Source: a virus (lineage: Monodnaviria > Loebvirae > Hofneiviricota > Faserviricetes > Tubulavirales). From it: DNA of 5,777 nt. How positions within the stretch are numbered: position 1 is the first letter of the stretch; every line of letters starts with the position of its first letter. The notes beneath the pieces are model-generated. The model did not search any database, was not told where the DNA came from, and was given only the letters and a program-made list of their open reading frames with translations. The position numbers were made by a program, and so were the translations under genes. The stretch is taken from IMG/VR virus record IMGVR_UViG_2579778634_000001, one strand, 5' to 3'. This document shows, piece after piece, positions 1 to 5,777 of this stretch.

Positions 1-141
1 ATGTCTGACGCTGATTTTCTGAACTTTGTTTTATTTGCTGCGCCTGCAATGATTTTATTTTCTTCAGGTTTTGGCATCGGAATAAAACTGATTCGCGCCT
101 GTGACTCACAAAGCATTACTGTTCAGCGTTATTATGACTGA
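1..141 (+). CDS. Small hydrophobic protein, putative minor coat protein pVII-like (46 aa if the ATG at 1 is the true start; may continue from upstream of the window)
   Basis: Frame-1 ORF ending TGA 139-141; hydrophobic core (FLNFVLFAAPAMILFSSGFGIGI); lies immediately upstream of the coat gene cluster as gVII does in Ff phages; its stop overlaps the next ORF start (ATG 134). No residue-level homology established. Confidence 0.4.
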   Translation: MSDADFLNFVLFAAPAMILFSSGFGIGIKLIRACDSQSITVQRYYD

Positions 142-609: not shown

Positions 610-622
610 AATCATACCAGGA

Positions 623-2221
623 GTGTTTTTTTTGATTCACTTTATTATTCCGCTTCTGTTTTTGTTCTTTTCCTCGTTTTCTTTCGCTGAAGAGAAAGAA
701 AATCCGGATGCACTTGTTCAGTGTGCAGGCCATTCATCCTGCAGGACAGATTATTCGGACGCGGGGACGTCGATTAAATTAGCCAGGGCGGCCGGTCATC
801 TTTTCTGTGGTTCGGGCAATTATGACGCATGTTCCGGAATAATTCATTATTGTGGTGTGCCACTTTCAACGCCTGTTAATGCACCTTCGACTGTCGGGTC
901 TTTTGTCCGTGCCCGGTGGTCAGCATATAAAGTCTGGGATTCAGACAAGCAAAAGTGGACAGCCTGCACCCTTGCTTTTCAGGGTGGTGAGGGGGATTTG
1001 ACACCTGAATATAATAAGCCGCCAACTGACGAGATTTGTCTTTCTCGTCCGGTTCTTGATGGTATGACTTTTTCTGATGTTTATAAAGGTGATGACGGGA
1101 CCCGTTATGTTAATGTGCAGGGGTGTATTTATGAGGCAACCGGCAATCCTCTTATTTGTAATCCCGATGATGATACAGTTTGTACTGCCGACTGGAAACC
1201 AGTTGCTGTAGATCCTGCATTCTCCGATGGTAAGGAGGATGGCGGTAGCTCAGGTGGTGGCAGTTCCGGTGGTGGTAACCCAGGCGGCGGCAGTTCCGGT
1301 GGTGGTTCAGGTTCTGGCTCCGGTGGTTCATCCGGTAGCGGTGGCTCCGGCTCGGGTTCCGGCGGCTCATCCGGCAGTGGTGGTTCAGGTTCTGGCTCCG
1401 GTGGTTCATCCGGTAGCGGTGGCTCCGGCTCGGGTTCCGGCGGCTCATCCGGCAGTGGTGGTTCAGGTTCTGGCTCCGGTGGTTCATCCGGTAGCGGTGG
1501 CTCCGGCTCGGGTTCCGGCGGCTCATCCGGCAGTGGTGGTTCAGGTTCTGGCTCCGGTGGTTCATCCGGTAGCGGTGGCTCCGGCTCGGGTTCCGGCGGC
1601 TCATCCGGCAGTGGTGGTTCAGGTTCTGGCTCCGGTGGTTCATCCGGTAGCGGTGGCTCCGGCTCGGGCTCCGGCGGTTCATCCGGTAGCGGTAGTTCAG
1701 GTTCAGGATCCGGTGGCTCATCCGGCGATGACAATGGCTGGCTTGATGGTATTTTGGGCTGGTTAAAAACAATATGGGTGTCAGTGAATGATTTAAATAA
1801 TGCTTTTTCTGTTTCTCAGGCTGATATGAATAATGCATTAAATTCACTGGACAATGGTATTAAAGATATTAGTCAGAATATAGCTTCTTCTTTGCCTGAT
1901 GGGGATTTCCCTTTAGGGGAGCTTTCGCATTATTTGCCAGGACAGGGAAGTGAGAGTCATGATAATAACAATTGGCTTACAGTTAATATTGACAAACTGG
2001 TAAATACAAATAATGGAACTGCTCTTCCTTTTACTTTACAGTTTAGCTTTAATCTTCCGTTGATTGGCGCGATTAATTTCAAGATTGATACAAGCCATTT
2101 TGCAAAAGCTTATGACGATTATGTTCGTTCTGTTCTTGAATATGCTATTTATATGATAACCATGTTACGCGTTTTTGTTATTTCTCGCCGTACATTATTT
2201 GAACGTGAGGTAAAACTCTGA
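623..2221 (+). CDS. gIII: Adsorption / minor coat protein pIII-like (532 aa): signal peptide, Cys-rich N-terminal domain, N1-like segment, long Gly/Ser linker, C-terminal anchoring domain
   Basis: GTG 623 overlaps SD AGGAG (619-623), so the in-frame TTG 632 with 8-nt spacing is an alternative start (M13 gIII also uses GTG). Signal-like FFLIHFIIPLLFLFFSSFSFA. Segment GCIYEATGNPLICNPDDDTVCTADWKPV resembles the M13 pIII N1 segment GCLWNATGVVVCTGDETQCYGTWVPI (recalled). Gly/Ser linker as in Ff pIII. Hydrophobic C-terminal segment (LEYAIYMITMLRVFVI). Stop TGA 2219-2221 overlaps the gVI ATG. Confidence 0.88.
   Translation: MFFLIHFIIPLLFLFFSSFSFAEEKENPDALVQCAGHSSCRTDYSDAGTSIKLARAAGHLFCGSGNYDACSGIIHYCGVPLSTPVNAPSTVGSFVRARWSAYKVWDSDKQKWTACTLAFQGGEGDLTPEYNKPPTDEICLSRPVLDGMTFSDVYKGDDGTRYVNVQGCIYEATGNPLICNPDDDTVCTADWKPVAVDPAFSDGKEDGGSSGGGSSGGGNPGGGSSGGGSGSGSGGSSGSGGSGSGSGGSSGSGGSGSGSGGSSGSGGSGSGSGGSSGSGGSGSGSGGSSGSGGSGSGSGGSSGSGGSGSGSGGSSGSGGSGSGSGGSSGSGGSGSGSGGSSGSGGSGSGSGGSSGSGSSGSGSGGSSGDDNGWLDGILGWLKTIWVSVNDLNNAFSVSQADMNNALNSLDNGIKDISQNIASSLPDGDFPLGELSHYLPGQGSESHDNNNWLTVNIDKLVNTNNGTALPFTLQFSFNLPLIGAINFKIDTSHFAKAYDDYVRSVLEYAIYMITMLRVFVISRRTLFEREVKL
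1243..1728 (+). repeat. Tandem direct repeats encoding the pIII Gly/Ser linker: 78-bp unit, four perfect copies (1301-1612), one slightly diverged copy (1613-1690), degenerate flanks
   Basis: Seen directly: unit ggtggttcaggttctggctccggtggttcatccggtagcggtggctccggctcgggttccggcggctcatccggcagt starts at 1301, 1379, 1457 and 1535 (perfect) and 1613 (3-4 substitutions). Each unit is two 39-bp halves encoding the same 13-aa GGSGSGSGGSSGS with different codons. This also explains the long shadow ORFs on the - strand and in other frames. Confidence 0.95.
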
Positions 2222-2594: not shown

Positions 2595-3809
<1,215 letters not shown>

Positions 3810-3810
3810 G

Positions 3811-4530
<720 letters not shown>

Positions 4531-4559
4531 TATCTTCATGACTGAAAAACAGCACTTAA

Positions 4560-5777
<1,218 letters not shown>

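Follow-up and report, generated by a model that had tools for sequence, protein, structure and literature searches.

Variation in the number of linker repeats of g3p (pIII), the adsorption protein of filamentous phages, is already published for UPphi and IKe (PMC7307601). In the UPphi phages, no gene varied more than gene III, with 95 variants across 229 genomes (PMC7307601), and the number of its glycine-rich repeats was its main variation (Shapiro and Putonti 2020, PMC7307601). The glycine-rich region of IKe was described as changing length within few generations in culture (Bruno and Bradbury 1997, as relayed in PMC7307601). Being flexible, g3p linkers are not resolved by cryo-EM; infectivity depends on the distance between N1N2 and the C-domain (PMC10175506). 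In the Ff phages (M13/fd/f1), N1 comes first and two linkers, G1 and G2 (18 and 39 aa), flank N2 with charged (E)GGGS units.

The stretch of DNA analyzed here, “the window” (5,777 nt; IMG/VR record IMGVR_UViG_2579778634_000001), falls within this published variation as an extreme in size. Like Ff G1 and G2, its pIII linker is a flexible, Gly/Ser-rich tether of short tandem units with synonymous codon variation; unlike them, it is single, uncharged, and 162 aa long, with the N1-like domain in second place. Its length compares with 40, 40, and 20 aa in IKe, I2-2, and If1, respectively, and the view of an earlier, sequence-only reading that it is longer and more regular than the linkers of M13 (18 and 39 aa of (E)GGGS) held. 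We document below how the array is built, that its gene is of pIII type, and its polymorphism among near-identical phages, and we consider it very probable that the array is an in-frame VNTR that encodes the flexible pIII tether of an integrated E. coli inovirus and that grew by repeat misalignment.

The pIII of IKe and I2-2 shares the order of parts found in the window: N-terminal domain, TolA-binding-type N1, one Gly-rich linker, and C-terminal anchor domain. The N1 domains were 44% identical over aa 125-198 (PDB 4eo1, E=4e-13), and a terminator-like hairpin precedes gIII in both, annotated in IKe and read from the sequence in the window. The 40-aa IKe linker consists of GGDT/GGST/GGGSS, in contrast to a 13/26-aa pure G/S motif in the window. 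Neither the N-terminal domain nor the C-domain showed detectable similarity to IKe/I2-2; genome-wide, megablast gave no match to them, and tblastn of pIII matched at aa 125-198 only, at 41-44% (including If1). Unlike the nonintegrating IKe, the window phage is integrated, in tandem, beside hipBA. Its g3p repeat-number variation resembles that of UPphi, which are dif-integrated tandem inovirus prophages of Enterobacterales (PMC7307601). The UPphi unit, however, is a 5-aa GGGES, as opposed to 39/78-bp units encoding GGSGSGSGGSSGS; the linker range is far wider in the family of the window (16 to ~200 aa); and UPphi genomes are 7.6 kb and IKe/I2-2-like in most genes, whereas the window-type unit is ~8.7 kb and its pIII matches IKe in N1 only. 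By description, CUS-1 (E. coli K1) and YpfPhi (Yersinia pestis) are also similar in size and tandem arrangement; these 8.7-kb filamentous prophages are integrated at dif and carry genes for a secretin and a Zot-like protein (PMC4266046). More broadly, the array recalls the slipped-strand contingency VNTRs of bacterial and phage surface proteins, in which misalignment of coding repeats yields length variants of an exposed protein.

The gIII gene and its product

Features of gIII and its surroundings are as follows (residue numbers are counted from GTG 623, at which the open reading frame begins, giving 532 aa):

619..623 (+): Shine-Dalgarno AGGAG, 8 nt 5' of TTG 632 (read from sequence)
632..2221 (+): gIII, encoding a candidate adsorption (minor coat) protein of the pIII/g3p type; 529 aa when counted from TTG 632
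632..688 (+): predicted signal peptide IHFIIPLLFLFFSSFSFA (hydrophobic N-terminus; cleavage presumably after SFA)
689..1006 (+): N-terminal variable domain, aa 23-128, an exchangeable module
1025..1216 (+): N1-like (TolA-binding-type) domain, aa 135-198 (phmmer against PDB, tblastn, AF2)
1241-1726 (+): Gly/Ser linker, aa 207-368, 162 aa (translation)
1241..1300 (+): linker prefix GGSSGGGSSGGGNPGGGSSG (20 aa), 15/30-bp GGGSS-type units (Tandem Repeats Finder, period 15/30 at 1240-1306; translation)
1301..1612 (+): four identical 78-bp repeats (C+D); identical units start at 1299, 1377, 1455, and 1533
1613..1690 (+): fifth 78-bp repeat (C+B) (sequence comparison of units)
1691..1729 (+), or 1689-1727 in repeat phase: terminal diverged half unit A, GSSGSGSGGSSGD, end of the linker (translation)
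1727..1807 (+): conserved junction DDNGWLDGILGWLKTIWVSVNDLNNAF, start of the C-domain (invariant columns G372-N392)
1808..2218 (+): C-terminal domain with hydrophobic anchor (~aa 503-521, nt 2129-2185), then basic residues
2221..2580 (+): gVI-like gene (weak PHROG 1944 match, 1.6e-4)

The gene order, from Pfam and PHROG, was gVIII-gIII-gVI-gI-gIV. Both gI (PHROG 1675 “protein I of M13,” 2e-49, plus Pfam Zot) and gIV (PHROG 1012, 4e-115, plus Pfam Secretin) were recognized, and the gVIII-like ORF of 80 aa had a weak PHROG match. The hairpin ahead of gIII is rho-independent-terminator-like and is accompanied by a Shine-Dalgarno sequence, and the TTG equivalent to 632 is the RefSeq-annotated start in relative L001.

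That the gIII product is a pIII/g3p-type adsorption protein, as the sequence-only reading had proposed, is indicated by its N1 domain matches and gene order. In the PDB, phmmer matched the N1-like domain to G3P of IKe (4eo1, E=3.9e-13), If1 (2x9a, 5e-8), and fd (1fgp, 4e-7), the range over all such matches being E=4e-13 to 2e-5. Pfam PF05357 Phage_Coat_A matched at aa 129-174 (E=8e-9, 35.5 bits, cutoff 20.8); tblastn identity of the N1 region to pIII of IKe, I2-2, If1, and PEar was 38-44%; and the PHROG matches of the product were “attachment protein” and “virion structural protein.” The gene lies between the gVIII-like gene and the gVI/gI/gIV-like genes, and its translation reads as a predicted signal peptide, a Gly-rich linker, and a C-terminal anchor with a basic tail. 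The signal peptide is predicted by analogy with IKe and M13 pIII, in which signal peptides are annotated. The N-terminal variable domain (aa 23-128), which had no match in PDB or Pfam, is presumed to be the primary receptor-binding module, and the N1-like domain makes TolA the likely coreceptor.

An AF2 model of the full protein with 31 homologues had a mean pLDDT of 36.6. Values of 65-82 were confined to the N1-like domain, the C-domain region was of low confidence, and the linker was coil with pLDDT <30; the linker would thus act as a disordered tether. A sequence search of the PDB with the C-domain gave no match. Aligned by hhalign to the C-domains of Ff, IKe, and If1, it gave a probability of 6% over 23 columns, covering the anchor only, which lined up position for position with theirs.

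In strain 100416, the window-type prophage forms a unit of 8,739 bp, found as two tandem copies directly after hipBA, and the prophage of L012 also sits in a hipBA context. In E. coli K-12, dif adjoins hipBA. Active dif-integrating inoviruses occur as tandem copies at dif (PMC4266046). Sensitive blastn of gI (distant mode) located this family in just 32 of the 5,426 E. coli genomes searched, and a gI search of contigs, with one genome per species, returned no relatives. None of 50,697 phage records was matched by the whole window in megablast, so this phage is not a deposited isolate. The exact window pIII sequence was absent from the assembly collection, and the left-flank 44-mer was not found in metagenome contigs. 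Rfam returned no RNA family anywhere in the window, and for a plasmid-like motif in the gI-gIV spacer, single-stranded DNA folding was no better than that of shuffled sequence.

Anatomy of the repeat array

The linker, which the sequence-only reading had placed at 1243-1728, within 2 nt of the boundaries given above, contains 88 G, 72 S, 1 N, and 1 P. Its description as about 160 residues of pure G/S was thus right in length, but one N-P pair interrupts the run, and the longest uninterrupted G/S stretch is 148 aa. Following a prefix whose GGGSS-type unit is also found in IKe and in relatives of the 5-aa type, Tandem Repeats Finder identified an array of period 78 at 1299-1725 (5.5 copies, 97% matches, score 798), which was also called at period 39 with 77% matches. 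Positions 1299-1590 equal themselves when shifted by 78 nt, so that perfect periodicity spans 370 nt and the longest exact direct repeat is 292 nt. The corresponding repeats in M13, IKe, I2-2, and If1 are 17-23 nt (17 in M13 and 23 in IKe). The array is not a chance feature.

The proposed structure of five 78-bp repeats, four of them identical, was borne out: the fifth, starting at 1611, carries 3 changes relative to the other four and is followed by a diverged half unit. In frame, the order of 39-nt units is C D C D C D C D C B A, or (CD)4CBA, an 11-unit count that is as given in the IMG/VR sequence of the window. The halves C and D (39 nt each) do encode one 13-aa peptide with different codons, as had been read: both yield GGSGSGSGGSSGS, and 9 of 39 nt differ, every one at a third codon position (9 of 13 third positions versus 0 of 26 others, p=3e-6). 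The 4 differences between units B and D are likewise all synonymous, and the 7 internal unit variants share a single encoded 13-mer. Differences restricted to third positions point to purifying selection on the linker peptide.

Linker alleles on one backbone and across the family

Sequences sharing the backbone of the window comprised 6 alleles among n=9, with between 5 and at least 14 units and lengths of 84 to ~201 aa, where alleles from IMG/VR and protein databases may stem from short-read assemblies that mis-size repeats. Linker length therefore varies between isolates, as the sequence-only reading had expected, and close relatives differed mainly in linker repeat number, in frame every time. 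Unit counts were 5, 5, 5, 5, 6, 11, 11, and at least 14. The clearest case is L022, whose allele (CDCBA) differs from the window array by three 78-bp units only, with 0 SNPs in 1,300 nt of left flank and 1 SNP in 2,080 nt of right flank. The same CDCBA was found in L001 (both tandem copies) and L040, while L024 had CDCBBA, L023 had CDCBBBBHBBA, and L037 had (CD)5CBB and then the beginning of A, hence at least 14 units. There is thus one CD pair in L001, L022, L040, L023, and L024, four in the window, and five in L037; L024 and L023 gained their extra copies of unit B in the 39-bp register. L023, L024, and L037 have common flank SNPs, yet three different alleles. Of the expansions, at least three arose independently, and both the 78-bp and the 39-bp registers were involved. 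Eleven units (162 aa) were reached twice, by 78-bp CD expansion in the window and by 39-bp B expansion in L023. As a separate observation, strict conservation of the 13-mer together with two expansions at exactly 11 units fits poorly with a purely neutral tether.

Three unit types occur in the family, of 15, 39/78, and 27 bp. Units in relatives of the window encode GGGSS/GGGNS or SGGSSGGST, and relatives with 15-bp or 27-bp units have linkers of 16 to ~170 aa, the upper end being L031, built of 27-bp units. The 162 aa of the window are accordingly not the longest linker of the family, this candidate having been ruled out by L037 (at least 14 units) and L031. Complete genomes hold linkers of 83-116 aa, and between 16 and 116 aa the lengths form a near-continuum in which no optimum stands out. 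Among database pIII proteins that are identical in the N and C domains, the linker alone varies in length (e.g., 31-111 aa); protein clusters are then split by linker length alone, and variant counts exaggerate real diversity.

By local identity, gIII has a mosaic makeup around the linker. Identity of L021 to the window is confined to nt 601-1000; for L004, the values are 70-74% in the N-terminal domain versus 97-98% downstream. The C-domains fall into three classes (about 95-100%, 50%, and 45% identity), all of which have the junction segment 1727..1807 in common in the alignment: L012 and L021 are still 97% identical to the window at the junction, after which identity drops. The C-domain and gVI are exchanged as one cassette, with a boundary at ~nt 1800-2600, and gVI identity in L012, L018, and L021 is 36-62%, versus 94-100% for the downstream gI. 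This covariation fits a pIII-pVI partnership. P0024 (L012, 45-aa linker) was considered as a simple deletion derivative and ruled out, as it has a different C-domain and gVI cassette.

Origin, stability, and significance of the array

[quoted passage not shown] An ancestral array C D C B A of 39-nt units would have grown repeatedly through misalignment between repeats, probably by replication slippage and/or unequal recombination, with the 78-bp CD pair going from 1 to 4 copies in the lineage of the window. Because every unit length is a multiple of 3, the protein would be left intact and tether length alone would change; for the same reason, on/off switching of the kind seen in contingency loci does not arise. 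The copies being identical, the expansion is likely very recent. Our best guess is that tether length is tolerated over 16 to ~200 aa and is mostly drifting.

How unstable such arrays are depends on the allele. The instability predicted by the sequence-only reading applies to alleles with long perfect repeats but not to the linker as such: the sister allele WP_050488172.1, with diverged units and longest repeats of 41 nt, was identical in 7 strains from 5 countries, and instability thus tracks perfect repeat length. With its 292-nt exact direct repeat, the window allele should be the least stable in the family. The tandem prophage copies in strain 100416 carry one and the same allele, so change is not evident at every duplication and the rate is not extreme. 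The accompanying warning about short-read mis-sizing was plausible and partly upheld, in that the 370-nt periodic stretch exceeds common short reads and 2 of the 9 same-backbone sequences, both contigs, end in or at the array.

That warning bears on whether the window's copy number could be an artefact of assembly, with a real unit but a count of four CD pairs made or mis-sized by the assembler or by polishing. Reads of 150-250 nt cannot span 370 nt of perfect periodicity; the two contigs that end within the array or at its edge, L035 and L037, are from IMG/VR; and Logan contig L012 has a short linker and one 312-bp spacer repeat fewer. We nevertheless regard an artefact as distinctly improbable, since multicopy CD arrays recur (five pairs in the independent contig L037), complete genomes hold their 83-116-aa linkers unproblematically, the window array is in frame with flanks that match relatives base for base, and assembly collapse normally shortens arrays rather than lengthening them. 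Very unlikely, in our view, is relaxed constraint in a decaying, nonfunctional prophage in which a long linker would be irrelevant to virion function. In some relatives gIII is indeed disrupted (6 stops interrupt its reading frame in L013), and UPphi prophages with premature stops have been reported (PMC7307601), but all seven window genes are intact in the ORF list, every length change is in frame, unit-to-unit differences are exclusively synonymous, and the identical tandem copies at the hipBA/dif region resemble those of active dif-integrating inoviruses (PMC4266046). The long ORFs open over the array in other frames, a 201-aa Pro/Glu-rich one at 1129-1734 (-) and a 179-aa one at 1227-1766 (+2), raised the question of whether the array codes elsewhere. 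We treat this as negligible: homology (N1 upstream, conserved C-domain downstream) exists in the gIII frame only, variation is restricted to third positions of that frame, and Rfam gave no match. Repeats of GGY/TCN/AGY codons lack stops in several frames by construction, and these ORFs were rejected as by-products of codon composition.

Tether length might instead be adaptively tuned, the array being a contingency-type locus that adjusts the reach of the receptor-binding head, with long alleles selected; reach could matter for O-antigen or capsule thickness or for how far TolA in the periplasm lies from the primary receptor. We hold this to be unlikely, if credible. In its favor, the two independent routes of the window and L023 converge on 11 units and 162 aa, long tethers occur separately in L031 (27-bp unit, ~170 aa) and L037 (~201 aa), the exact 13-mer is under apparent purifying selection, the most variable gene changes fastest in its linker (PMC7307601), and the N1N2-to-C distance affects Ff infectivity (PMC10175506). 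However, the 11-unit coincidence has n=2, family lengths run almost without gaps between 16 and 116 aa around no evident optimum, and a longer natural glycine-rich region in IKe was without fitness effect (Bruno and Bradbury 1997, as relayed in PMC7307601). The specific proposal of a rapid tuning device, in which in-frame repeat gain and loss (39 and 78 bp, with three unrelated unit types across the family) sets the reach of the head, is decidedly unlikely. If tuning were true, selection would favor alleles of 162-201 aa on certain hosts, such as those with thick O-antigen or capsule or with TolA far from the primary receptor, and the 13-mer conservation and two arrivals at 11 units would be footprints of selection.

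Several implications follow for work with these phages. Short reads give no reliable size for gIII of window-type prophages. For engineering, uncharged G/S tethers of ~4-5x the length of the M13 G2 linker are tolerated in nature, and the conserved postlinker junction marks a natural swap point between receptor-binding and anchor modules that may help the design of chimeric g3p. For IKe, fitness is the sole property examined so far, with no effect (Bruno and Bradbury 1997, as relayed in PMC7307601). Here, the lineage represents a natural allelic series of 84, 97, 162, and ~201 aa on a near-identical backbone, which could be used to ask whether g3p tether length affects adsorption or host range.

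Gene content and the identity of the gIII product

Every gene in the 5,777-nt window lies on the + strand, and together they make up the part of a filamentous phage genome (Inoviridae) that provides virion structure and assembly.

Genes and intervals of the window
1–141 and 134–304, +, two small ORFs (ORF list)
329–571, +, gVIII-like ORF of 80 aa (ORF list)
632–2221, +, gIII, with a TTG start 8 nt after AGGAG; the ORF opens at GTG 623, from which residues are counted
2221–2580, +, gVI-like gene
2598–3809, +, gI/Zot (PHROG "protein I of M13," 2e-49)
3810–4568, gI–gIV spacer, 759 bp
4569–5777, +, gIV/secretin (PHROG "protein IV of M13," 4e-115)

The gVIII-like gene and gIII are separated by a GC-rich hairpin (GCGCCC…GGGCGC) with a T-run behind it (about 584–609), and IKe has a stem-loop annotated as a potential terminator at the equivalent position. 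The gI–gIV spacer, only about 110 bp in relatives L002 and L003 and 448 bp in Logan contig L012, carries a 312-bp tandem repeat (3925–4530; 1.9 copies, 94%) and three copies of a ~60-bp motif (about 3822–3880, 4161–4220, and 4474–4530) that matches hundreds of small (1.4–11 kb) E. coli plasmids at 92–97%. The motif appears to resemble the pBR322/ColE1 segment just downstream of ori (primosome-assembly/single-strand-initiation region), and by that analogy a role as a complementary-strand origin would make sense in an ssDNA phage. As ssDNA, the motif folded no better than shuffled sequence, and no RNA families were found in the window with Rfam.

In the gIII product, residues 135–198 matched the N1 (TolA-binding) domain of IKe G3P (PDB 4eo1, E=3.9e-13) as well as N1 of G3P from If1 (2x9a) and fd (1fgp, 1g3p, 8b3o); Pfam Phage_Coat_A scored above cut-off on this stretch. 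A tblastn search of all phage records matched only pIII of IKe, I2-2, If1, and the Erwinia PEar phages, at 38–44% identity over aa 125–198. The N terminus is hydrophobic and signal-like. A second hydrophobic stretch, near the C terminus and trailed by basic residues, lines up residue by residue with the Ff/IKe anchor, at an hhalign probability of only 6%; outside this anchor, a PDB sequence search found no similarity of the C-domain to solved pIII. The AF2 model was confident only for the N1-like domain and rendered the linker as a featureless coil (pLDDT below 30). The order of an N-terminal domain, an N1-like domain, one linker, and a C-domain is that of IKe and I2-2 pIII, unlike that of M13. 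We conclude from these comparisons that gIII encodes a pIII-type adsorption protein, with a C-domain only putatively homologous to that of known pIII. By analogy with Ff (M13/fd/f1; PMC10175506) and IKe, the N-terminal part would bind a primary receptor and then TolA, the C-domain would hold the protein in the virion tip jointly with pVI, and the G/S segment would serve as a disordered tether between them.

The linker array and its alleles

The linker spans aa 207–368 (nt 1241–1726). It was previously described, from the sequence alone, as about 160 residues of pure G/S encoded by five 78-bp direct repeats, four of them identical, each built of two 39-bp halves that specify one 13-aa peptide with different codons. 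Each element of the array was recovered, with coordinates within 2 nt, and only the purity needs amending: the 162 residues comprise 88 G, 72 S, 1 N, and 1 P. Tandem Repeats Finder delimited a period-78 array at 1299–1725 (5.5 copies, 97% matches), in which the units starting at 1299, 1377, 1455, and 1533 are identical, that at 1611 departs from them at 3 positions, and the array closes with a diverged half unit. Read in frame, a 20-aa prefix (GGSSGGGSSGGGNPGGGSSG) precedes eleven 39-nt units, C D C D C D C D C B A. Units C and D specify one peptide, GGSGSGSGGSSGS, and their 9 differences are confined to third-codon positions. The perfectly periodic stretch measures 370 nt, and exact self-identity at the 78-nt offset extends over 292 nt, against longest exact direct repeats of 17–23 nt in M13, IKe, I2-2, and If1. 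The linkers of those phages are likewise shorter (18 and 39 aa of (E)GGGS units in M13, 40 aa in IKe and I2-2, and 20 aa in If1), so that the window tether has 4 times the length of any of them and is far more regular; the sequence-only reading had drawn this contrast with M13.

That reading also expected linker length to vary between isolates, and it does. Nine sequences agree in their N- and C-domains and have flanks that are almost identical, and on this one backbone we found alleles of 5, 6, 11, and at least 14 units.

Linker alleles on the window backbone (letters, 39-nt unit variants; L-handles, related loci)
Window: (CD)4 C B A; 11 units
L022: C D C B A; 5 units
L001 (two copies) and L040: C D C B A; 5 units
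L024: C D C B B A; 6 units
L023: C D C B B B B H B B A; 11 units
L037: (CD)5 C B B, contig ending 15 nt into A; at least 14 units (about 201 aa)
L035: contig stops inside the array

L022 matches the window without a SNP across 1,300 nt of left flank and with a single SNP across 2,080 nt of right flank, and L023, L024, and L037 have three flank SNPs in common, yet carry three different alleles. Flank-matched alleles of differing unit number point to a five-unit array as the likely ancestor; at least three of the expansions arose independently, some in a 78-bp and some in a 39-bp register. Eleven units (162 aa) were reached twice independently, by 78-bp CD pairs in the window and by 39-bp B units in L023 (IMGVR_UViG_2619619131_000002; gIII at 3283–4929, compared with window 1301–1729).

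Among about 90 database homologues from E. coli, linkers range from 16 to 111 aa; those of GGGSS/GGGNS type change in steps of five residues, and groups with identical N and C domains vary solely in linker length (e.g., 31–111 aa across nine proteins). A distant relative with a gI 86% identical (L031 4311–4819; IMGVR_UViG_2541047895_000001) has a linker of about 170 aa made of about nineteen 27-bp SGGSSGGST units, a third, unrelated repeat type giving an equally long tether. Repeat-number variation of g3p linkers is already known from UPphi, the dif-integrated tandem inovirus prophages of Enterobacterales, whose gene III occurs as 95 variants in 229 genomes with repeat number as the main difference (PMC7307601). 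New here are the lineage and its pure G/S unit of 13/26 aa, the size reached (linkers of 162 to about 201 aa and an exact repeat of 292 nt), and a natural allelic series on one backbone.

Stability and possible function of tether length

Long direct repeats delete and expand via replication slippage and unequal RecA-dependent exchange. Identical linkers across isolates had been named as the observation that would speak against instability; length varies on the window backbone, but seven complete genomes (from Japan, China, Mexico, Mali, and Pakistan) share without change the sister pIII allele WP_050488172.1, whose 83-aa linker consists of diverged units that repeat exactly over no more than 41 nt. 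Together with the identical arrays in the two tandem prophage copies of E. coli strain 100416, this constancy ties instability to long perfect repeats, and by exact repeat length the window allele would be the most slippage-prone seen. The anticipated mis-sizing in short-read assemblies is plausible: the 370-nt periodicity exceeds ordinary short reads, and among the 9 sequences of this backbone, two IMG/VR contigs end within the array or right at its margin. For the window, as for many database alleles, the copy number is therefore provisional until confirmed by long reads, although recurrence of a multi-copy CD array in the independent contig L037 argues that the window expansion is real.

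Selection is visible on the peptide. The seven variants of the internal unit (B, C, D, F, G, H, and I) all encode one 13-mer and differ pairwise only at third-codon positions; between C and D, changes fall at 9 of 13 third positions and 0 of 26 others (Fisher p=3e-6). Linkers of relatives also admit N, P, T, I, D, and E, so that a need for flexibility alone, whatever the sequence, does not account for such conservation. The synonymous scrambling of C against D, whose longest exact in-register match is 8 nt, should also suppress 39-bp slippage until a unit has been duplicated; the unit duplicated in L023 and L024 is B.

A worm-like-chain estimate (persistence length of 0.45 nm, an assumed value for GS linkers) gave an r.m.s. 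reach of about 3.6 nm for 40 aa, 5.3 nm for 84 aa, and 7.4 nm for 162 aa, the last with a contour length of about 62 nm. Whether such differences matter to the phage bears on two readings. The conserved 13-mer and the paired arrivals at exactly 11 units would fit adaptive tuning of tether length, to which we assign a low probability; with n=2, the shared total may be coincidence. Drift of tether length within a broad tolerated range is favored, because in IKe a naturally longer linker left fitness unaffected (Bruno and Bradbury 1997, cited in PMC7307601) and the lengths seen here are nearly continuous.

Prophage setting and modular exchange in gIII

The family is rare, occurring in 32 of 5,426 complete E. 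coli genomes (blastn distant mode, gI query). The closest match among these genomes, strain 100416 (Gambia), is 99–100% identical to the window throughout except for a 234-bp (3 x 78) gap in the array; its prophage, a unit of 8,739 bp, stands directly after hipBA as two tandem copies, a context repeated in Logan contig L012. In layout, this resembles the dif-integrated tandem prophages CUS-1 and YpfPhi (PMC4266046). Sister prophages of the L003 type occur singly, between hcxB and ybiB, and 2 nt ahead of their replication gene have a transposase gene of the RNA-guided IS110 family (L011 15273–16238; L033 18667–19632; L034 19260–20225). One phage family thus seems to have two integration routes, in tandem by hipBA and singly between hcxB and ybiB. 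In L013 (E. coli E300010, 2009–3424), the expected frame of gIII is interrupted by 6 stops, and the RefSeq annotation is limited to a truncated CDS; some prophages of the family are, by this sign, decaying.

Sliding identity profiles resolved gIII into a set of exchangeable modules.

Modules of gIII
nt about 690–1000, N-terminal domain
nt about 1000–1240, N1-like domain
linker type, a separate module
about 1800–2600, C-domain plus gVI cassette, in three classes (about 95–100%, 50%, and 45% identity)

In the L002, L003, and L021 types, an unrelated Cys/Asp-rich segment (pIII aa about 140–222; …VIKDFSYSLGDVVWVDTGNGQ…CDDDGNC…CDDDNCDNTT) replaces the N1-like domain; it had no match in Pfam (homologous pIII proteins P0086–P0089) and hints at a different co-receptor. 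The C-domain and the entire gVI are swapped jointly, at 36–62% identity to L012, L018, and L021 between flanks of 94–100%, a pattern consistent with co-adaptation between these two proteins of the virion tip. A conserved island common to all C-domain classes comprises the end of the linker and the next 25 residues (GWLDGILGWLKTIWVSVNDLN), and the breakpoints of the C-cassette fall within it. Beyond its part as a tether, the linker region on this evidence also marks the seam at which receptor-binding and anchoring modules recombine.
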